From the sequence record LC647030.1: a DNA stretch of 64,000 bases; one strand, given 5' to 3'. A program made the translations under genes and the position numbers. This document shows, piece after piece, positions 1-24,008 of the stretch (the stretch's first letter is position 1; every line of letters begins with the position of its first letter). The stretch is from Staphylococcus phage vB_SsapH-Golestan-100. The notes under the pieces were generated by a model, which was given only the letters and a program-made list of their open reading frames with translations, was not told the origin of the DNA and made no database searches.

Positions 1-31
1 AAAAAAAAACACCTATTAATTAAAATAGGTG
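1..31 (-). terminator. Rho-independent terminator acting on the minus strand
   Basis: Perfect hairpin cacctatt/aataggtg (10-17 pairing 24-31). On the minus strand it is followed by a 9-nt U run, which is the A run at plus 1-9. Confidence 0.6.
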
Positions 32-1760
32 TCCATCAAGGCTCCCGTACTTAGATTACGGTTAATATTATTTTACGACAATTGTATGAGTATCCTTGAT
101 GTTGAAACGCTCGTCACTGCGTGTATGTACTATAACAGGGAGCTATATAAGAGTTTACCTCATATAGCTTTGTCATAGTAACTGAATATACAGTGGTTTG
201 GCTGTCTTATGGAGTTCCTCTAAGCTATACAGAGAAAATCAGCTTCCTTATGTTGTAACTCATCTAACCATAAACTTGAGTTACACGCCAAGTGTCCGAT
301 ACCTAATAATCAAGACTTGGTATCTTAAGCCATCACTCTATACTCTATGACACTTCTTCTGAGAATAAAGCTGTCCAACTTATTTCACTCTCAAGGTGCT
401 ACCTAATTTTGAGTTATCCCTATTTGGAAAGTAGGTATGGTTCACCTTAGCTAACGCTTAACCGATACTAACGCTAGTACAGGGAAACCCTAAGTTTTCA
501 GTAAAGACCAGTGCGCACCAGTCAGAACCACGGAAATTTAGATGAGCATTAAGGCTCTGTATGTCTGAGTGACTAGCTCATTTGATTTTTTAACAGCGCT
601 TATTAACTAGTCGTTAATAAAGGTTTCACGGTCTCTATTACCTACTCTTTATTATTAAAGTTAAGCTTAAGCTAGAGTGTTCTAGGAACCAAAGTCACTT
701 AACTAACTTATGGTATTATTACCATAAAACATAAACTGAAGGACTCTAACCCTCATCTTTACACATCGTGTGTAACGCTCTATATTGTGGGTAATTACTC
801 CACTCATCAACCCACCTTTAAACAGTCCCGTTTGCGCAATTAAAACTATTTAAGGTAATTAAAATTAAGCTAAGTCTATGTTTTATAATAACAAAAGTGG
901 TGAATTATTTCTACCCTGTCATCACCATCCAAGGTTTTTAACGTCTTTTCTGACGGACAGTTTACCACCAATCCACTGACAAGTTCTCCGATTATTTAGA
1001 CACGTTAGGATAGTGCGTGTAACTGCTCACGCCAGTCAGACGACACGTACTTTATTTATCCTCAATTACGGGCAGAAATGAGTTTGATAGGTGAAACCTT
1101 TTAGACTTCCTATCGACTATTATAGTCCTAGTTGGCATACGTTCCAACTAGTGTCTTTTAGTAACTTTCTGAAATGTCATAAGGGGTCAATGCTAGCAAG
1201 TAGCGACCCGACACCAGCCAACTCTCATATGGTTTAGTTACAAGGTACTTATATCTCCACCATAGGCTAGTGTAAGCGTATGGTGGTAATTCCGCTAGGC
1301 TCACTCGAAGCAACTCAAGTGGTATGAGCCTAGCAATATCTCCCGTCACTTATCGGTTATTGTTTTATACTGGAAAACGGGACGGGTACCACGAAAAACA
1401 GTCCCATCATGAAACCTGTAACCTCAGATGGTAAAATAAGTTTTTTGATAACAGGATAGTCACCGCACGTGTTCAGCAACTATATAAGATGTTCCCTATA
1501 GAACTCTCTATAGGTTTACATAAGCTAGAGTAGCTAACTTTAACTTACTACTACAGGAGTATACCCTCTAAAACCACTAAACTTTGTGGGATATACAGAT
1601 TACATAATAGCACTTATGTAACCAGTTTTTTATGCTATAAGTGGAATTGAAAGAACTCCACATATACTCAAGGTATACTAGAGTCCTCTGAGTGACCAAT
1701 AAGTAATCTCTAATTAGCGGTTAGAGAGTCGATTAGATGGAAATCACTTTTCTATAATTA
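32..1760 (-). ncRNA. Candidate large structured non-coding RNA; class unassigned, with GOLLD/ROOL-type phage RNAs as one hypothesis
   Basis: The block is 1.7 kb with no credible ORF in a gene-dense phage. Its GC is visibly higher than in flanking genes. It holds many perfect long stems: gctaggctca 1294-1303 pairs tgagcctagc 1325-1334; ccaccata 1257-1264 pairs tatggtgg 1280-1287; ctagttgg 1128-1135 pairs ccaactag 1144-1151. A minus-strand promoter lies at its 3' side and a minus-strand terminator at its 5' side. Confidence 0.3.
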
Positions 1761-1788
1761 ATATAACATAAGTTTGCTATTTTTGCAA
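1760..1788 (-). promoter_or_regulatory. Sigma-70-like promoter reading leftward into the ORF-free region
   Basis: On the minus strand: TTGCAA, a 17-nt spacer, then TATATT with an upstream TG (extended -10). It lies immediately 3' of the stop of CDS 1792..2298. Confidence 0.3.
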
Positions 1789-1791
1789 CCC

Positions 1792-2298
1792 TTATTTTAA
1801 ACTTTCTTCTACTTCTTTTCTAATACGCATTAGCTCATCATATGTTTCTTGGTCTGTGTAGTCGATGATAAGTGTAAGGTCAGGAGATTCCATAGGATTA
1901 GTAAAGTATAATTTAGTTACTACAACCCCTTCTCCTAATTCCATAACCTTACCTTGGTCTACATATTCCTCTCTAAACACTTTAGATGCTTCAATAGGGC
2001 TTAATCTATAGTCACTAAATATTTTAAATAGCTTAGCAAGAGCAATAAATCTATCCTCATTACGTCCTGTAATTTTAAAAGTTAAAGAGTGTGCACTTTC
2101 TTTATCTCCTTCTTGAGGTGTGAACTTTCTAAATTCATATGTATAGTACATCTCTCTGATAATAGGAGCTAAGATTTCAGCTACTTTATGAGAACCTTCA
2201 GTCGTTTCTTCTTTTGTAGGAGATTCTAAAGTTTTTGATAAAGGTAAATCATGTCTAATTAAATCCATTATTGTATCATTCTTGTCTATTTTTGGCAT
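1792..2298 (-). CDS. Hypothetical protein (168 aa)
   Basis: ORF with a start codon overlapping the upstream gene. No recognisable motif. Confidence 0.5.
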   Translation of the reverse strand: MPKIDKNDTIMDLIRHDLPLSKTLESPTKEETTEGSHKVAEILAPIIREMYYTYEFRKFTPQEGDKESAHSLTFKITGRNEDRFIALAKLFKIFSDYRLSPIEASKVFREEYVDQGKVMELGEGVVVTKLYFTNPMESPDLTLIIDYTDQETYDELMRIRKEVEESLK

Positions 2299-2480
2299 TT
2301 ATTATCACCATGCTTATTAAGTATTTTATCTATCCTAATTTTAGCCTCTAAAATTACTTCTTGGTAATAGAGTCTCTTCATTTCTTTTCTAATAGATAGT
2401 ATAACATACAAGCATAGTATTGTAGCATAAAGTGCAATAGCAACAATTTCCTCTGTAGTAATATTAAGAAGAACTAGCAT
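2286..2480 (-). CDS. Small membrane protein (64 aa, one TM)
   Basis: Hydrophobic N-terminal helix. The start is tightly packed against the upstream terL exon. Confidence 0.4.
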   Translation of the reverse strand: MLVLLNITTEEIVAIALYATILCLYVILSIRKEMKRLYYQEVILEAKIRIDKILNKHGDNKCQK

Positions 2481-2483
2481 AGG

Positions 2484-3248
2484 CTAATCCTTCTTATAAA
2501 TGTCTTGTAATAATGATGATACATCTTTTTCATTATCCATACCACCTTTAGGAGCCTCAGGATTCAGTGTACTAATGAATGTAGAACCAAATTCATTTCC
2601 GCCACCACTGTTAAGAAGTTGTAGACGTTTTAACCCTATATAGCCAATTACTGATGCTTGGCTATAATGGTCATCGCCTTTACGAGATATTGTTTGGTAA
2701 AAACCACCATTAGTCTCATCTTCTTCATCTCTTATAACTACATTTTTCCAATGTACTAAATATTTCTTTAAGTCCTCATCTATGATTTTATAAGTTTTTA
2801 TATAACCTGATTTTAATGCATCTATATAAATCTTATTTTGAGTTAACTTATCTACTTTCATATTATGTTGATTGGCATTTACTTGAGGTACAAATTCTCC
2901 TGTAGATTTAGGAGCTGATTTATATTCACAAGAAAAAACTCTACCTTCACCAAAGTGGTTGATTAGTTTTAGTACTTTGTCACCACTATCTCCTTTATCA
3001 GCCATAACAATGTCAGGTTTGTACTTAGAAAATTCTATAATAATTTGTTGAACATCCATACCTATCTGTTTAGGGTCTCTAACTTCAGGGATAGAGAATA
3101 GTCTTATTAAATGAACTTCTCCTGATTCTGTCATGCCATGTACAGTACAATAATGTGTTCTACCCCAATCCACAGAACATGATATATATTTATAACCTTT
3201 ACGGTCATGCTTTTGTGTTAATAAGTTTTCTGCATAGTTGTCAAACAC
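2484..3248 (-). CDS. terL: Large terminase subunit, 3' exon (RNaseH-like nuclease domain). The true 3' splice site lies somewhere in 3249-3293.
   Basis: YKYISCSVDWGRTHY aligns with T4 gp17 YIATLDCSEGRGQDY, and a C-terminal GDDHYSQASVIGYIG hDD motif is present. The reading frame stays open 15 codons upstream of the GTG with no independent start needed. Confidence 0.7.
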   Translation of the reverse strand: MFDNYAENLLTQKHDRKGYKYISCSVDWGRTHYCTVHGMTESGEVHLIRLFSIPEVRDPKQIGMDVQQIIIEFSKYKPDIVMADKGDSGDKVLKLINHFGEGRVFSCEYKSAPKSTGEFVPQVNANQHNMKVDKLTQNKIYIDALKSGYIKTYKIIDEDLKKYLVHWKNVVIRDEEDETNGGFYQTISRKGDDHYSQASVIGYIGLKRLQLLNSGGGNEFGSTFISTLNPEAPKGGMDNEKDVSSLLQDIYKKD

Positions 3249-4561
3249 GTCTTCCTCTAATACTGTTAAGCTAGCATCTTCATATGGAAACGATTATACC
3301 GCTAGTTTCCTAGTACTTTAACACTCATTTAAGAGTCGGTCTAGACTATCTCATACTCCTTAGTTTAGGTTAAGGAGTCTCTGCTTTACACTATAAATTT
3401 AGTTTCATCTTTAAATACGCACTAACTTGATTATAAGTTTTCTGAGTATAAGGTATTTCTATAAGAGTTATGTTATTATTCTTAGCATACTTTCTTTTAA
3501 TGTCATCTCTGATTACTTGTTCTTCATACTTCTCAATACCTCCAAATATTTCTACAGGAGTGAAGTGTTGTATTCCTTGATACTCTAGTAAAAATTCTTT
3601 ACCTTCGAGAGATGGTATATGAAAGTCATAGGATAATTTTCTTGAATGCAGAAGGTCTTCATACTTCTTTTGTTCAGTATAAGTTATTTTGTTATCATCT
3701 AAGAATCGTCTAACATAACTCTCACCAACAGATATATTACAGTAAGAACAGCAAGGCTTTTCTAGTAGATGATAAGGAGTGACTAATAACTCCGTCTTAC
3801 ACTTGTTATGTCTAACCTTTATCTTTGTAGTACTGCCCTTATATTCACCTAATACTGTATACTCATTTTTGTATTTATTAAAAACATCCTTCTCAAATTC
3901 TTTTTGTGTTTTGCGTTGAGAAAGACCTTGCAGTTTTCTCATACATTTAAAACATCTAGTTTTTGAAGAAAGAAAAGCGTTAGGAGTAACTTGCCACTCA
4001 GTTCCACAAGATTTATGTAAAAGAGTTACTTTATTATATACACCGTTATAGCTACCTATAAGTTGGTACTCACCTTTAGTTAGGTCATACAGCTCTTTTT
4101 CAAATTGAGCTGTTGTTTTGGCTTTAGCTCCTCTTTTTTTATTTCTACATAAAGGACATCTATTACCATCTAAAAAACCCTTAGGTGTTACCATGTACGT
4201 ATTAGAACAAGTATTATGCTTAATTTTAATTTTTGTTCTATTGTTAATGTAGGTTCCTTCAACTACGTACTCATTATTTACTAAGGTATATACTTCTTTT
4301 TCAAATTGTTCTTGTGTTTTCTTTATTGACATGTTACTCTGCTCCTTTAATTTATAGTTTTTATCTAGTTTTCACTATCTCCTTTTAGATAGCTATCTAG
4401 AAACTTAGTCGTTGGACATTTATCTTGATTTAATCATAGCATTAATAGTTAACTATGTCAAGAATTTAGTAACGGATTGTCATATACTTTTTAAAGTACT
4501 TAGAGTTCCCCGTTTTAACAGAGTTTTCTACCGCCATTACTGACGATAGGGGCTGAAATTA
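3249..4561 (-). mobile_element. Group I intron (td-like, subgroup IA) interrupting terL and carrying a homing-endonuclease ORF. Boundaries approximate: 5' splice site after plus 4562, 3' splice site within 3249-3293.
   Basis: Read on the minus strand. The exon ends GGGU and can pair with an IGS GCCC to form P1. AAAACGGGGAAC...GACAAUCCGU (plus 4505-4516 region) closely resembles the T4 td P3/P4 sequence. An R-like element GUCCAACGACUAAG lies at plus 4404-4416 and a second R-like element GCAGAGACUCC at 3374-3384. An S element GAGAUAGUCUAGACC lies at 3338-3352. Confidence 0.65.
3391..4332 (-). CDS. Intron-encoded homing-endonuclease-like protein. It has three about 55-aa zinc-ribbon repeats and a C-terminal PD-(D/E)XK-like domain.
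   Basis: The module FEKE.Y....EY...G.Y.N...K..H..C...W.V.P..FL....C..C appears three times. The C-terminus carries YDFHIP...EYQG...RDDIK. The ORF has its own RBS (aaaggagcag) and lies between the terL exons inside the ribozyme. Confidence 0.55.
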   Translation of the reverse strand: MSIKKTQEQFEKEVYTLVNNEYVVEGTYINNRTKIKIKHNTCSNTYMVTPKGFLDGNRCPLCRNKKRGAKAKTTAQFEKELYDLTKGEYQLIGSYNGVYNKVTLLHKSCGTEWQVTPNAFLSSKTRCFKCMRKLQGLSQRKTQKEFEKDVFNKYKNEYTVLGEYKGSTTKIKVRHNKCKTELLVTPYHLLEKPCCSYCNISVGESYVRRFLDDNKITYTEQKKYEDLLHSRKLSYDFHIPSLEGKEFLLEYQGIQHFTPVEIFGGIEKYEEQVIRDDIKRKYAKNNNITLIEIPYTQKTYNQVSAYLKMKLNL

Positions 4562-5608
4562 ACCCAGCATGTAGTTATAGAAGGCTTGCTTACTTGGTGT
4601 AGCTAATTCTTTACGTTTTAAGTCATCGGCTGTTATCCATACAGCATTCATTTGAGAAATTGAGTATCCTCTGATACCTCCACCATCTTTAGTGCGCTCA
4701 GGATACTTAGCAACCCACTCTCCATTATACCATCGGTCTAGTGGTTTACCACATTTCTGACAGACATATTGGAAGGTTCCATCTACTACTGTTTGACTTA
4801 ATCTGTCAACACCATCAGGGTTAACACATAAGATGTTGCCTCCTGCCTCAATGGAACTAGAATCATAATCCTCATAACTCATTTGGTTCCAGTGGTTACA
4901 TTTGTCGCACTTGTGTAAGTATTGATGTTGGTCTGATGCTTCAAACAAACGATGTATTCCTGTATTAGGAGCGGAAGGTGTTGACCACCGTCTTTTTACT
5001 CCAAATTTAGAACTTGACATTGATTCCTCTGCTGAAGCTTCTGCTAGTTTATTAATTCTGTCGTACTCATCGAGGGATAGAAAGTCAATGTCTACACCCT
5101 CTACACTTCCTGGTTTACTACTAGTACGGAAAAACAAACTTGAATTTCTAAACCTTTTCAATTGTACTGAGTTATAATCTTTATCTACGATACTTTTAAA
5201 GTAAGGTTGGTCAAGGGTAGGGTCTAACCTAGTTTGAACAAACTCCTTCATTTGTCTATTTGTTGGGAAAGTGTAAAGACATTTAGCAGATGCATAGCTA
5301 TGCATGTCTGCAAACCACATCATTTCCCATACTCCCATCTCACTGAGCCCCAATTGTCTTGCCTTTATTATAGCTTTATTTGGATGCTGGTCGTTTACGA
5401 TTTGAGTTTGCCATGGCCTATGAGAATGGGCATTCGCAGAGTCTCTATTTGGAATAGAGAAAGTCAACGGATGCCCTTTTACTTTACTATGTTTTAGAAT
5501 ATAACTCGAAGGCCTAGACGTTGTTAACACATAATCAAGTTGCTCCTTTGTAGGATTATCCGTCTTGAATGTCTCTTTGGTAATCTTTAAAAGTTCTTTA
5601 CCATCCAT
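4562..5608 (-). CDS. terL: Large terminase subunit, 5' exon (ATPase domain). The ORF stop at 4559-4561 lies inside the intron.
   Basis: KARQLGLS is a lambda-gpA-type deviant Walker A and aligns with T4 SRQLGKT. NSSLFFRTSSKPGSVEGVDIDFLSLDEYD aligns with the T4 gp17 Walker B region [42 protein letters not shown] aligns with GTSGTLISGMKLAVM. Confidence 0.65.
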
Positions 5609-7478: not shown

Positions 7479-7697
7479 ATGTATAACTTTAAAAAACTAG
7501 AAATAACAATGATTGATGGTAGTAAATTCTTTGCTTTCCCTGAAGGAGAGGCTGGGGTAATATCTGTAACTCATGTTTCTCAGTCTATCGGTAAAGGTGG
7601 ACATAGTTTATTCTTAGCTAATACTGAAGATAGTGTAGACTCTAAACAAATCTTTATTAATGCTAACTTAATTATATCTGTAGAAGGTAAAGTTTAA
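7479..7697 (+). CDS. Hypothetical protein (72 aa)
   Basis: ORF with RBS gagaggaag. Confidence 0.4.
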   Translation: MYNFKKLEITMIDGSKFFAFPEGEAGVISVTHVSQSIGKGGHSLFLANTEDSVDSKQIFINANLIISVEGKV

Positions 7698-7710
7698 TAA
7701 ATATATCTTG

Positions 7711-7743
7711 AAGAGAGCTATTAGTTTAGTTCTCTTTTTTTTT
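7711..7743 (+). terminator. Rho-independent terminator
   Basis: Hairpin agagagcta...ttctct followed by T9. Nearly the same sequence recurs at 10256-10286. Confidence 0.6.
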
Positions 7744-7749
7744 ATTATA

Positions 7750-8060
7750 TTGTGTAATACAGAAAGTGACACATTTAAGATTTTATTAATCTTTATATAT
7801 AACTATATACTTTATATATCTTTAATTATAATTACTAGTATTATAACTATAGTTACTAATAAAGGTTAATAAATTCCTAAATACGTCATAATAGATAGTA
7901 TACAACATAAAGTGACACATTTAGAACATTTATCAATCTTTATATATAACTATTATTATAATAACTATTAAAGAACTAATAAAGATATATAAAGTATATA
8001 TACTAATAAACATCGTTAAAATCCTAAATGTGTCATAATAAGTTTTATACAACATAAATA
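7750..8060. repeat. Tandem 146-bp repeats (two full copies and one partial), each carrying an inverted motif pair
   Basis: gtgacacattta occurs at 7766 and 7912. The inverted partners taaatacgtcat and taaatgtgtcat lie at 7879 and 8026. The unit spacing is 146-147 bp. Confidence 0.6.
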
Positions 8061-8099
8061 AAGGTAAGAACTCCCACATTCAAGATTAAATAACTATAT

Positions 8100-8137
8100 G
8101 TAAAAGATAAAAAAATATAACTACTCTGTGTTATAAT
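8100..8137 (+). promoter_or_regulatory. Extended -10 promoter (TGtTATAAT) for the lysis cassette
   Basis: tgttataat at 8129-8137 with no strong -35. It sits downstream of the repeat region and upstream of the 8267 gene. Confidence 0.4.
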
Positions 8138-8266
8138 GTATTTATAGTCAAGGTAATCTACTACTTATTTTGACTATACTCTAAGCTGTTAAATCAAAGA
8201 GGTATTAGGGTGGCTCCTTTTACCTCCTCTTCAAATACATATAAACAAAATTAAAGGCGGTATATT

Positions 8267-12426: not shown

Positions 12427-14091
12427 GTGGGTTTTTTTGAGAAATTAGCACTTTCAGGTACACAACAAAATAATAATCAGCAACCAAATACACTAGCTAG
12501 TCAAGTTGACGCTGAACAACTTACTAGTAGTATCAAAAGCTATGAAGACTTACTTAAAAAAGGGTATGTTGAAAAAGCTATAGGCCAAGAAGATACTGCA
12601 CAACAAGAACCTTTACTAGGTATGATGAGTGTTAACCCTGACTATAGGGAAAAGAATAACTATACTAAAAGTATGCATAGAGTCCAAGAAGTTCTTAAGC
12701 GTTTTGGTAATAACATTATTGTCAATGCTATTATTAACACACGTTCTGACCAAGTATCTTTATACTGTCAACCTACTAGATACTCTAAAAAAGGTATGGG
12801 ATTTGAAGTAAGATTAAAAGATGTTACAGCAGAGGCTACAGACTCTGAGAAAAAAGAAATGAAAGAGATAGAAGATTTCTTAGTTAATACATCTAAAAAA
12901 GTAGATACAGAAAGAGATTCTTTTTATGACTTTTGTAAGAAAATAATAAGAGACACGTTATTATATGACCAAGTAAACTTTGAGAAAAATATAGATAAGA
13001 ATACAGGAGAGTTATTATCTTTCTTAGCTGTTGACCCTACGACTATATTTTACAAAACTAAAGATAGTAAAATTGTAAGGAATAAAGAAAAGTTACCAAA
13101 GTTTGTACAAGTTATAGATGATAAAGTTGTTAATGAGTACACTGCAAGAGAGATGGCTATGGGAGTAAGAAGACCTAGAACAGACATATCTTCTAGTGGT
13201 TATGGGTACTCAGAACTAGAAGTAGCATTAAAGCAGATTATAGCTCATGAAAATACAGAAGCTTTTAATGATAGATTCTTCTCTCACGGTGGTACTACTA
13301 GAGGTGTGTTATTAATTAAGCAAGAGCAACAATCTACTACATATGCTTTAGAGAACTTTAAACGTGAATGGAAATCAAGTCTTTCAGGTATTAATGGTTC
13401 ATGGCAAATACCTGTAATCAATGCTGAAGATGTTAAGTTCATTAACATGACACCTACAGCTAATGACATGCAATTTGAGAAATGGTTAAACTATCTTATC
13501 AATGTTATCTGTTCTGTATATGGTATTGACCCATCTGAAATCAACTTCCCTAACAGAGGGGGAGCAACAGGTTCAAAATCAAACTCCTTGAATGAAGGTA
13601 ATTCTTCTGAAAAACACAGAGATTCAAAAACTAAAGGTTTAGAGCCTTTACTGAAGTTTATCGAAAACATGATAAATAAATATATTATCCCTGAGTTTAA
13701 TGATAAATATACATTTGAATTTAGTGGTGGAGATAATAAAACAGAACTTGAAAAACTTGCAATTCTTGAGAAACAAATGGAACTATTTAAAACTCCTGAT
13801 GAAGCACGTGTTGAACAAGGCGCTGAAGGTACTGTACCAGGTGGAGATACAATCCTAAATGGTGTAGCAGTCCAAAGACAAATTCAATTGATGCAAGAGA
13901 AAGAGTTTGCTTACAAACAAGAAAGAGATAAGAAAGAAGATGCTAAAGAACAAGAACAACAAGATGCTAATGACAATGAACAAGAACAGCCTGAAGAGGA
14001 GCAATCTAATTCAGATGTTAAAGGTCAAATGAAAGACCATTCTAACGACAGAGACAATGCATCAGGAAACATAAAAATGCCTAAACAATAA
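12427..14091 (+). CDS. Portal protein
   Basis: GTG with an aaggaggg RBS. 554 aa, with position and size like Twort-like portal proteins. Acidic C-terminal tail. Confidence 0.65.
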   Translation: MGFFEKLALSGTQQNNNQQPNTLASQVDAEQLTSSIKSYEDLLKKGYVEKAIGQEDTAQQEPLLGMMSVNPDYREKNNYTKSMHRVQEVLKRFGNNIIVNAIINTRSDQVSLYCQPTRYSKKGMGFEVRLKDVTAEATDSEKKEMKEIEDFLVNTSKKVDTERDSFYDFCKKIIRDTLLYDQVNFEKNIDKNTGELLSFLAVDPTTIFYKTKDSKIVRNKEKLPKFVQVIDDKVVNEYTAREMAMGVRRPRTDISSSGYGYSELEVALKQIIAHENTEAFNDRFFSHGGTTRGVLLIKQEQQSTTYALENFKREWKSSLSGINGSWQIPVINAEDVKFINMTPTANDMQFEKWLNYLINVICSVYGIDPSEINFPNRGGATGSKSNSLNEGNSSEKHRDSKTKGLEPLLKFIENMINKYIIPEFNDKYTFEFSGGDNKTELEKLAILEKQMELFKTPDEARVEQGAEGTVPGGDTILNGVAVQRQIQLMQEKEFAYKQERDKKEDAKEQEQQDANDNEQEQPEEEQSNSDVKGQMKDHSNDRDNASGNIKMPKQ

Positions 14092-14097
14092 TAAGTG

Positions 14098-14124
14098 TAG
14101 GGGTACACCCCCTATGCTTTTTAT
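14098..14124 (+). terminator. Rho-independent terminator
   Basis: tagggg-tacac-ccccta hairpin followed by gcttttta. Confidence 0.5.
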
Positions 14125-14171
14125 AATAAAAAATAGCAATAATATGATACTATAACTATAGGTAGTTAAAA

Positions 14172-15023
14172 GTGCTATATTATGAAGGAAATCCAAAAAG
14201 AGGAGTGAATATCCTTGTGAATAATGTAGAAACAAAGTCAATGAGTATTTTCCTTCCCATAGACACTGTTAAGTCTGTAGATACAGAGGCAGAAAAGAAA
14301 ACAGTCTATGTACAAGGATGGGCTTCTAATGACACTTTAGACTTACAAAATGAGATAGTAAATCCAACAGGTATTGACATTTCTTATTTTAAAGAACATG
14401 GTTGGATAAACTATGAGCACCAACAAGATGCTGAGTATGTTATTGGTGTACCTACAGAGAACTGTAGCGTAGATGTGAATAAAGGATTATTTGTAGAAGC
14501 TAAACTTTTTGATGAAAATCCTTATGCACAAACCATTATAACCTTAGCTGATACCTTAACTAAAACAGGTGTTGAACGCAAATTAGGTTTCTCTATAGAA
14601 GGTGTAATTAAACAACGTAATGAGAATGACAGTCGTATTATAGAGGAAGTTATGATTACTAATGTTGCTATCACAAAATCTCCTGCTAATCCAACAGCTA
14701 CATGGGATGTATTCAGGAAGAGTTTAACATCTAAAGCTTTTGAAACAGGTCATGGTACTTCACCTGAAACTCAAGTAGATGGTGGAGCTGTGAGAAGAGA
14801 ATCCTTAGCACAAAGTATTACAAGACTATCAGATGTGTACTCCTTAGATAACGCACAAGCAATTAGAGACACATGGAAGTCTGTAGTTGATTGTTTAGAA
14901 AGTGAGAATAAACTAGATTATAATACAGCAGTTCTTACTCTTCAAGTTGTAAAAGGACTTTCAAGAGTAGAAGCAGAAAGAGCTGTATTAAACATGAGAG
15001 AGGAGCAATTGAGGAATGGGTAA
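14172..15023 (+). CDS. Prohead (maturation) protease
   Basis: VQGWASNDTLDLQNEIVNPTGI matches the HK97-family S78/U35 prohead-protease N-terminal region. It sits between the portal and the scaffold/MCP genes. Confidence 0.65.
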   Translation: MLYYEGNPKRGVNILVNNVETKSMSIFLPIDTVKSVDTEAEKKTVYVQGWASNDTLDLQNEIVNPTGIDISYFKEHGWINYEHQQDAEYVIGVPTENCSVDVNKGLFVEAKLFDENPYAQTIITLADTLTKTGVERKLGFSIEGVIKQRNENDSRIIEEVMITNVAITKSPANPTATWDVFRKSLTSKAFETGHGTSPETQVDGGAVRRESLAQSITRLSDVYSLDNAQAIRDTWKSVVDCLESENKLDYNTAVLTLQVVKGLSRVEAERAVLNMREEQLRNG

Positions 15024-23556: not shown

Positions 23557-23791
23557 AAAATAATTGACCCCTCTATTAGGAAACTAATAGTTGAATCATA
23601 CCTTACAGAAAAAATAGTTTAGATACCATAAGCTGAGAAAAAGCTCTAAATTGATTAGAGTGCTAAGTGGTTAATAATCGGAAATCAGCATCGAAGCTCC
23701 TGTAAAATGGATAACGTTCAACGACTATAATAGGTAGACCTTAAATGGTTATGGTATAGTCTAGCCCCTTTAAAATATATCGAAAGATAGG
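23557..23791 (+). mobile_element. Small ORF-less group I intron in the tail tube gene
   Basis: R element GUUCAACGACUAUA at 23716-23730. S element GGUAUAGUCUAGCC at 23753-23766. P1 is the hairpin GGUU|AAaauaaUUGACC. The 5' region ugaCCCCUCUAU resembles the terL intron cagCCCCUAUCG. A short open frame follows, ending exactly at the terminator. Confidence 0.55.
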
Positions 23792-23904
23792 GTATAAGCG
23801 GTAGCGCACAGAACTATAATGAAGAATTCCGAGTAGGGGAAATCGTAACAGAACAAATTGCTTTCCTTTACCTATATGCTAGTGATAAAGCTTCAAGCAA
23901 GTAA
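23792..23904 (+). CDS. Tail tube protein, exon 2. Predicted spliced product is about 146 aa.
   Basis: After splicing, codon t|gt is followed by ISGSAQNYNEEFRVGEIVTEQIAFLYLYASDKASSK and then a stop. The intrinsic terminator starts 5 nt after this stop. Confidence 0.45.
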
Positions 23905-23908
23905 TACT

Positions 23909-23941
23909 AAGAGACCTAAATATAAGGTCTCTTTTTTTTTG
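23909..23941 (+). terminator. Rho-independent terminator
   Basis: agagacct/aggtctct stem followed by T9. Confidence 0.65.
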
Positions 23942-24008
23942 TCTAAGGATATAGACCCTATGTTATATTAAATTGTATAAGAAAAGACTATACAAAAAAC
24001 TCCTTGTA

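Follow-up and report, generated by a model that had tools for sequence, protein, structure and literature searches.

The window analysed here, a 64-kb stretch of Staphylococcus phage vB_SsapH-Golestan-100 (sequence record LC647030.1), opens with a gene-free block (positions 1-1791). This block is probably a Twortvirinae-like non-coding RNA (ncRNA) island: an enlarged, tRNA-less counterpart of the long non-coding RNA (lncRNA) locus lncRNA1 of Kayvirus, which is made of exchangeable cassettes and carries an orphan DUF3800-I RNA at its 3' end. The source is a Twortvirinae-like Staphylococcus myophage whose nearest records are the Staphylococcus capitis phages S2G3 and Fi4S2 (95.7% identity); an earlier reading of the same DNA, the original prediction, had correctly attributed it to a phage of Firmicutes. 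Within the block, a six-frame scan found no open reading frame (ORF) longer than 63 amino acids (aa), and each of the six frames contains 43-56 stop codons per ~597 codons, where ~38 are expected from composition. The block, 1791 nucleotides (nt) long, is the biggest gap without ORFs in the window, the runner-up measuring 569 nt. The description given previously, of a block without credible ORF in an otherwise tightly packed genome, therefore stands on both counts. A leftward operon, which includes a split large-terminase gene and the gene for a 168-aa DUF7198 protein without relatives in IMG/VR, precedes the block in the direction of transcription. The window starts inside the tail of the terminator that closes the block, and the left-hand context was taken from S2G3, in which a gene resembling those of recombination-directionality factors (RDF) lies past the terminator, followed further on by a Ser/Thr phosphatase gene.

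The two ends of the block carry transcription signals of the same orientation. A sigma-70-like promoter is predicted on the minus strand at 1788-1760 (TTGCAA, a 17-nt spacer and TG-n-TATATT; 9/12 in the consensus scan, plus the TG). It begins 3 nt past the stop codon of the upstream gene (1792-2298), with a predicted transcription start at ~1753, and both hexamers are identical in S2G3. The promoter pointing leftward into the block that had been proposed at 1760-1788 is thus retained as a predicted site; promoter-like sites are not enriched across the region overall. At the opposite end, the minus strand carries an intrinsic terminator made of an 11-bp stem (34-7) and a T-run (6-1), its tail being cut by the window edge. 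A terminator had indeed been announced here, but its coordinates (1-31) were slightly off. Judging from these signals, the block would most likely be transcribed leftward from 1788-1760, with an end at 34-7. Read-through from the terminase operon is also possible, because no terminator precedes the promoter.

It seems highly improbable that the block consists of pseudogenes, unrecognised genes or several micro-ORFs. The annotation of S2G3 does call nine small hypothetical ORFs under the match to window 1-2400, and a combined scan of the block for Shine-Dalgarno sites and ORFs returned a single 17-aa ORF (1410-1357, minus strand) preceded by a GAGGU Shine-Dalgarno-like site. However, this ORF is not kept in OPT-SC01, stop codons are depleted in no frame, and the substitutions between related copies keep base pairs, as detailed below. 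The six-frame translation of the block gave no significant match in PHROGs; the one weak match (E = 0.012) probably corresponds to a family made from spurious ORF calls. Degraded protein-coding genes, whose presence would have spoken against the original prediction, were detected neither by this search nor by the Shine-Dalgarno and ORF scan.

The content in guanine and cytosine (GC) of the block is 0.377, as compared with 0.342 +/- 0.02, and 14/303 stretches of equal length get that high. The GC elevation noted previously is thus clear with respect to the neighbouring genes (0.27-0.33) but only modest at the scale of the window, and values of ~0.43 are confined to the sub-blocks 448-600 and 934-1420. 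The block is also dense in stems, as had been claimed. It contains 10 perfect local stems of 8 bp or longer, whereas 500 dinucleotide shuffles give 1.25 +/- 1.13 and never reach this number (0/500), and stretches of equal length elsewhere contain 0-7, mostly 0-3. The three stems singled out earlier (1128-1151, 1257-1287 and 1294-1334) are all present, at 1128-1151, 1257-1286 and 1294-1303/1325-1334. In 200-nt sliding windows, the mean folding z-scores for the minus and plus strands are -1.86 and -1.20 in the block, versus -0.39 and -0.17, respectively, in the adjacent genes. On the minus strand, three longer segments of the block have z-scores of -2.4 to -2.8 (-2.36 for 1400-1760 and -2.55 for the GC-rich segment 934-1336), and individual windows go down to -2.92 (1501-1700) and -3.07 (701-900). 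Structure in the block exceeds chance and is stronger on the minus strand.

Two parts of the block have counterparts in phage K (NC_005880.2), between gp032 and the gene for tRNA-Met. Window 3-122 corresponds to positions 13637-13756 (86.8% identity), and window 601-708, cassette M4 in the following, to positions 13859-13967 (82.6% identity); both positions are intergenic. The M4 match in phage 515A1 is at 13957-14065. Three RNA-seq studies cover this region. One places the minus-strand RNA lnc001 of phage K at 13595-14229 (Finstrlova et al.; PMC9241854, Table 1), another places the lncRNA1 region of 515A1, with 2.2% of counts, at 13,730-14,300 (PMC7698491; Kornienko et al.), and the third, in which the two lncRNAs together accounted for 27% of reads, maps lncRNA1 to 13,688-14,215 (PMC11598898). 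The counterparts of M4 and of the 3' cassette M1 both lie inside lnc001 (13595-14229), the lncRNA1 interval 13,688-14,215 covers M4 and most of M1, and M4 of 515A1 lies inside the 13,730-14,300 region. As an aside, the names lnc001 and lnc002 are swapped between the text and Table 1 of PMC9241854.

Kayvirus lncRNA1 counts among the phage transcripts of highest abundance (PMC7698491, PMC9241854, PMC11598898). Through its partial homology to this RNA, which was detected by RNA-seq, the block corresponds to a phage RNA that is real and very abundant, and the RNA of the block would, by analogy with the Kayvirus data, be abundant as well. Similar to Kayvirus lncRNA1, the block is read on the minus strand, lacks ORFs, ends with the same terminator hairpin and contains two homologous cassettes, the DUF3800-I unit and M4. 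The non-coding structured RNA locus on the minus strand that had been predicted is thus borne out, and it is partly homologous to lncRNA1/lnc001. In contrast, Kayvirus lncRNA1 is only ~530-635 nt long, follows a tRNA-Met gene and is transcribed from the promoter of that tRNA, whereas the block in the window measures ~1.75 kb, lacks a tRNA, has its own promoter-like site and includes at least six extra cassettes. The neighbours also differ: the terminase operon and the RDF gene flank the window block, gp032 and the phosphatase gene the Kayvirus locus.

The 3' cassette, M1 (1-129, minus strand), corresponds to a DUF3800-I unit including the terminator. DUF3800-I (RF02969) is the sole Rfam match in the whole window (1-129, minus strand, 41.3 bits versus a gathering score of 44.2, with the 3' end cut by the window edge). 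Complete copies score 45.5 bits in S2G3 (95% identical to the window copy) and 45.0 bits in the P68-like sequence, and eight other Twortvirinae copies score 38-43.4 bits. Members of this family (Weinberg et al. 2017, PMC5737381) are characterized by the core UUAAsCGUAnUnUAAGUnCGs in a 5-bp hairpin, a long covarying stem and then an intrinsic terminator. All these elements are found here: the conserved core hairpin (UUAAGCGUAnUnUAAGUACGCC) is present within the long covarying stem, the helices are equal in the phage and bacterial sets, and the rho-independent terminator lies directly 3' of the motif, whereas OPT-SC01 and Stab23 have other cassettes between core and terminator. The window copy departs from the family in its first hairpin of 4 bp, in a 15-nt insertion and in the closing pair of the core hairpin, which is C-G instead of G-C. 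It also forms the 3' end of a far longer ncRNA in a virulent phage, and no DUF3800 gene is adjacent to it.

This last difference concerns the hallmark of the family, whose RNA in bacteria, prophages and plasmids immediately follows a gene for a DUF3800 protein. When one genome per species was scanned with a 21-nt degenerate core derived from the phage copies, 28 loci matched, against ~17 expected by chance. Twelve of the 20 loci tested (19/20 in Firmicutes or Mollicutes) turned out to be bona fide DUF3800-I (56-102 bits); these adjoin a gene of ~230 aa, and 7/10 such ORFs belong to Pfam DUF3800. Similarly, in 27/38 IMG/VR contigs containing the core, a DUF3800 ORF lies immediately upstream in the same orientation, the other 11/38 being without a detectable one. 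In the Streptococcus prophage Javan110, a cI-like repressor gene, DUF3800 and a DUF3800-I RNA (68 bits) follow one another beside the integrase gene, which is a lysogeny-expressed accessory position. In contrast, none of the proteins encoded near the block was identified as a DUF3800, and searches with hidden Markov models detected no such ORF in the 64 kb of the source phage genome that form the window, in 13 Twortvirinae loci from GenBank or in those parts of two Kayvirus-like IMG/VR contigs that were fetched. A tblastn search of DUF3800 against 50,697 phage records retrieved only three Streptococcus prophages or satellites. The DUF3800-I RNA of the block is thus a divergent member that lacks the hallmark gene association of the family, an orphan.

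DUF3800 proteins have an RNase H-like fold, are linked to mobile elements and defence systems and are associated with ncRNAs (PMC5737381, PMC10910872, PMC13594972). DUF3800-I itself was highlighted in 2017 as a motif whose biochemical function is probably sophisticated (PMC5737381). We also noticed a bona fide DUF3800-I copy of 58.6 bits in a prophage region of Lentilactobacillus kisonensis (L042/L075, positions 165-283), right after a GH25 endolysin gene. The fetched stretch contains no DUF3800 ORF, so that orphan DUF3800-I RNAs exist outside Twortvirinae too.

Matches to parts of the block were obtained in more than 200 Staphylococcus phage genomes; the ones inspected belong to Twortvirinae, as apparently do almost all of the set. 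We delimited cassettes by BLAST and nhmmer searches against 15 related loci (labelled L where positions in them are given), nhmmer adding nothing over BLAST. All cassettes are described here on the minus strand, starting from the promoter. The promoter-proximal leader M10 (1708-1771) is 73-78% identical to the 5' edges of the islands of vB_Sau_S24 and PSU5 (L007 3102-3168, L010 2778-2844). It is followed by M9 (1636-1706), common to OPT-SC01, Stab23 and vB_Sau_S24. A 'tRNA-Arg' annotated in vB_Sau_S24 overlaps the M9-like match; it spans 343 nt and overlaps a coding sequence, and we discarded it as an annotation artefact. The next segment (1415-1635), structured and including the hairpin 1595-1607/1614-1626, is lineage-specific and occurs only in S2G3/Fi4S2. 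M8 (1337-1414) is common to OPT-SC01, Stab23 and Golestan101-M. Its 23-nt core at 1356-1378 (GUUUUCCAGUAUAAAACAAUAAC on the RNA) is found in these three phages, partly as a slightly divergent variant, and also in the lncRNA2 region of Kayvirus (812h1, L006 4580-4602), with different flanks. A covarying hairpin around this core was considered and not retained, since RNAalifold and single-sequence folds disagree and alternative pairings are possible.

Further downstream, the GC-rich (0.43), stem-dense segment 934-1336, with the hairpins 1128-1151, 1257-1286 and 1294-1334, is again restricted to S2G3/Fi4S2. M6 (900-967) is common to Golestan101-M, and its start forms the right-hand end of a variable segment (575-933) that contains the long hairpin 716-737/873-894. 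In S2G3/Fi4S2, window 575-933 is swapped for an 846-nt cassette with a NUMOD4-HNH homing endonuclease gene (S2G3, L001 4576-5421), a swap that in S2G3 includes the loss of the Kayvirus-like M4 (601-708; the lncRNA1/lnc001 core, 82.6% identity). A second GC-rich segment, 448-574, is likewise known only from S2G3/Fi4S2. M2 (186-452), a multi-hairpin RNA of ~265 nt, is found with 81-99% identity at the lncRNA1 position of the P68-like phage, PG-2021_35 (99%), OPT-SC01, PSU5 and SAP23; in the Baoshanvirus Golestan101-M it sits in a different island, beside the holin gene. One metagenomic contig carries the M2 pattern, whereas the exact M7 and M2 patterns are absent from IMG/VR and that of M7 from metagenomes as well. 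A DNA search against plasmids gave no match to the block. A long linker hairpin (128-180), absent from PSU5 and SAP23, joins M2 to the DUF3800-I unit.

M1 is the only cassette present in 13/13 of the lncRNA1-type Twortvirinae islands examined, so that only ~120 nt are common to all of them; the differently placed island of Golestan101-M has no M1 or DUF3800-I match. The order of the cassettes varies too. In OPT-SC01 and Stab23, M8 and M9 sit 3' of M1, between the M1 core and the terminator, whereas here they are located far 5' of M1. Since the presence, order and locus of the cassettes change from phage to phage, a single colinear giant fold is disfavoured for the block; the pattern fits independently folding, recombining cassettes. 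The original prediction had favoured one giant RNA of ~1.7 kb, against which these cassettes, absent, reordered or relocated in relatives, speak; its fallback, the presence of several RNAs in the block, is preferable.

Several observations on the islands of other phages can be added. That of V1SC04 (L014 2493-3032) contains a free-standing HNH gene, and others carry tRNA-Met or tRNA-Thr. In Golestan101-M (L012 1437-3343), the ORF-free block next to the holin gene, with M2, M6 and M8, is ~1.9 kb long; this is a second block of such size, and ncRNA islands of kilobase scale therefore recur in the subfamily. Finally, a 60-nt element resembling TEG147, a small RNA of S. aureus (RF03535), scores 41-44.5 bits (gathering score 56.1) and recurs at the 5' side of Twortvirinae islands (L003 4457-4516, L004 3301-3360, L008 3925-3984, L009 2916-2975, L013 2894-2953 and L015 2714-2773). 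It is absent from the window.

Comparison with related phages had been proposed as a check of the predicted structures, and compensatory changes were found in M1 (four), M2 (four), M4 (two) and the hairpin 1128-1151. In the long stem of M1, 4/8 pairs show full compensatory changes, the pairing being CAUCAAGG/CCUUGAUG here and CAACAGAG/CUCUGUUG in most other phages. The alignment of M2 (window 110-470) yields with RNAalifold 98 pairs in which 98.3% of cells are paired, and four of these pairs have compensatory changes. Many U-G/C-G and U-A/U-G switches in M2 are workable on the minus strand only, and when the partner is slid by 1-3 columns as a control, the proportion of paired cells drops to 36-45%. 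With eight closely related sequences only, the M2 covariation is suggestive, not conclusive. M4 has two compensatory pairs and several wobble changes with respect to phage 812h1. Between the window and S2G3, the hairpin 1128-1151 has undergone a change from G-C to A-U. Selection appears to act on this hairpin, because the same change also weakens an overlapping promoter-like -35 hexamer. The 10-bp stem 1294-1334 shows a C-to-U difference from S2G3 that gives a G.U pair on the minus strand only.

The original prediction had brought up GOLLD- and ROOL-type RNAs and suggested an Infernal search. Promoter and terminator at the two ends, the density of stems and folding z-scores that are negative throughout would agree with one ~1.7-kb RNA similar to GOLLD, ROOL or OLE, forming a single ornate particle. 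Nevertheless, we consider such an RNA very unlikely. No match to the GOLLD, ROOL and OLE models was obtained at E up to 10 in region 120-1800, up to 1 in 1-4000 and up to 0.01 in the whole window, and the models for HEARO, raiA and group I/II introns did not match the block at permissive thresholds. The same holds for GOLLD, ROOL, OLE and introns at E up to 0.05 in the lncRNA1 and lncRNA2 loci of Kayvirus, and for group I/II introns at E up to 0.1 around the HNH cassette of S2G3. Weak Rfam matches to speF, an internal ribosome entry site, a small nucleolar RNA and IS009 were dismissed as noise. Moreover, cassettes are missing, reordered or at another locus in relatives, S2G3 tolerates the replacement of 359 nt by an HNH gene, only ~120 nt are common to all lncRNA1-type islands examined, and no tRNA is nearby.

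The discoverers of Kayvirus lncRNA1 likened it to GOLLD and ROOL in genomic position and transcript abundance. A review published in 2023 stated that Kayvirus lncRNAs resemble GOLLD/ROOL in sequence (PMC10383478), which is not supported by the covariance models. The block resembles the GOLLD and ROOL RNAs of Lactobacillales prophages in being phage-borne, non-coding and, if its Kayvirus homologue is a guide, highly expressed, and the homologous Kayvirus loci are near tRNA genes; it differs from them by the lack of a covariance-model match, of a conserved overall architecture and of a tRNA in the window. We also discarded the idea of a tRNA graveyard: ARAGORN (at default settings and with thresholds lowered to 85% of these) and the Rfam tRNA model detected no tRNA in the window, and a search for T-loop motifs found none in the block.

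The position of a large non-coding region adjoining the terminase genes could suggest a cis-acting DNA element, such as a replication origin or a packaging or recombination site, but this can hardly be the case. The block contains no tandem repeats, direct-repeat families or iterons, its GC content is raised and not lowered, an AT-rich candidate region being located instead at 7650-7950, and the homologous Kayvirus cassettes are far from the terminase gene. In addition, RNA-like behaviour is seen in the conserved parts, whose substitutions are compatible with G.U pairs on one strand and which include a terminator.

A more serious rival, and the main one, is that most of the block is non-functional spacer: a landing zone for recombination and homing endonucleases, filled with debris of mobile elements, tRNA genes and foreign ncRNA, with selection acting only on the DUF3800-I unit and possibly M2 and M4. 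The block is indeed a mosaic, HNH genes are present inside the islands of S2G3 and V1SC04, other islands contain tRNAs or weak tRNA-like matches, and about half of the block has no homologue past two near-identical phages. GC content also varies by sub-block, and these differences suggest separate origins. Against this, the lineage-specific parts are the highest in GC and stem density, the hairpin 1128-1151 shows a compensatory change despite 96% overall identity, neither protein nor tRNA nor intron remnants were detected, and the genomes are otherwise tightly packed. On balance we regard the spacer explanation as unlikely.

Large virulent phages related to T4 and T5 have variable non-coding tRNA regions with small stable RNAs and free-standing homing endonuclease genes. 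The island described here is comparable in being non-coding, variable and part of the genome of a large virulent phage, and genes for tRNA-Met or tRNA-Thr and for HNH endonucleases are found in other Twortvirinae islands; however, no sequence relationship is known, and the block in the window has neither a tRNA nor an endonuclease gene.

Outside the block, the split large-terminase gene occupies window 2484-5608 on the minus strand, with the ATPase half (GpA_ATPase) at 4559-5608 and the C-terminal half at 2484-3248. Between the two halves lies an ORF of 313 aa (3391-4332) with a CapR-homology domain, whose equivalent in S2G3 carries the annotation HNH endonuclease; group I intron models gave no match. 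The second-largest ORF-free gap of the window (7698-8266, 569 nt) is accompanied by GC values down to 0.19 at 7651-7950. In phage K, the untranscribed region of lowest GC content was proposed as replication origin (PMC9241854), and this gap is thus a candidate origin or regulatory region. Another gap without ORFs, of 414 nt (23559-23972), is found within the structural gene module. S2G3 also has a near-perfect long palindrome between two small genes (L001 2527-2615) that is not in the window; it matches several microRNA-precursor models on both strands at ~50 bits, which is a hairpin artefact.

The identification of the block as an enlarged, modular counterpart of lncRNA1 ending in an orphan DUF3800-I RNA has to be weighed against several observations. 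About 940 nt (roughly 448-598, 716-898, 965-1338 and 1404-1640) have no homologue beyond the near-identical S2G3/Fi4S2, and what speaks for a function of these ~940 nt is limited to one compensatory change and folding z-scores of about -2.4 to -2.8. The sequences behind the covariation are few and closely related, and in column shuffles of M2, 8-19/500 attain covariation measures as high as those observed. For DUF3800-I, the score is at the Rfam threshold or slightly under it, and the first hairpin is shortened. The data are also compatible with one ~1.75-kb transcript, with several transcripts or with processed RNAs. Even so, we hold this identification to be the probable one.

The following scenario can be proposed for the working of the island. 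Transcription would proceed leftward from 1788-1760, maybe with read-through from the terminase operon, and stop at 34-7, producing a string of independently folding cassettes. These would be exchanged by recombination, both from phage to phage and from one of the two lncRNA loci to the other, and would sometimes be displaced by homing-endonuclease genes. The abundant RNA could act as a decoy or sponge, the orphan DUF3800-I titrating or neutralising a DUF3800-type nuclease system of the host or of a prophage, while the remaining cassettes might bind other host or phage factors. A precedent of this kind is the pseudo-ToxI of phage PhiTE, a phage-encoded pseudo-antitoxin RNA directed against ToxIN. 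By functional analogy only, the two cases would be alike in that a virulent phage carries the orphan RNA half of a mobile protein-plus-RNA module. No host DUF3800 system was found in Staphylococcus by the plasmid search and the core-pattern genome scan. Three results weigh against a decoy: no DUF3800 gene was detected in Staphylococcus plasmids, no Staphylococcus genome matched the 21-nt core (one genome per species), and DUF3800 proteins give only weak matches to PDC-S51 in PADLOC (E = 5e-4). Given the weakness of this last match, we did not retain DUF3800 as a catalogued defence gene. A decoy or sponge RNA whose orphan DUF3800-I counters a system of DUF3800 type is thus a tentative proposal, possible but on the unlikely side.

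One may go further and imagine an anti-defence RNA island, in which each of the exchangeable structured RNAs would mimic the RNA partner or substrate of a protein-RNA system of the host or a prophage. The orphan DUF3800-I, kept in the >200 matching phage genomes, would then neutralise the DUF3800 modules of the lysogeny regions of temperate phages and be the first identifiable example of such a cassette. This broader idea is speculative, and we consider it rather doubtful.

Both the type of locus (lncRNA1) and the 3' motif (DUF3800-I) have already been described, so that the island is not categorically new. However, the link between lncRNA1 and DUF3800-I, the orphan state of the motif across Twortvirinae, and the cassette-like, locus-hopping organization with expansion to ~1.8 kb without a tRNA all appear to be unreported in the literature searched. 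Kayvirus-type phages, whose most abundant transcripts are the two lncRNAs, are now in therapeutic use, and CRISPR editing of phage K has been reported. If our identification is correct, the locus is a modular RNA island present throughout the family and able to grow to ~1.8 kb. Its sole universal component would be a divergent, partner-less DUF3800-I RNA, which elsewhere is coupled to an RNase H-like gene of prophage lysogeny modules. The role of lncRNA1 and that of DUF3800 with its RNA would thereby merge into one testable hypothesis. Should the anti-defence idea prove true, the DUF3800/DUF3800-I pair and the lncRNAs of Kayvirus would each be assigned a function.

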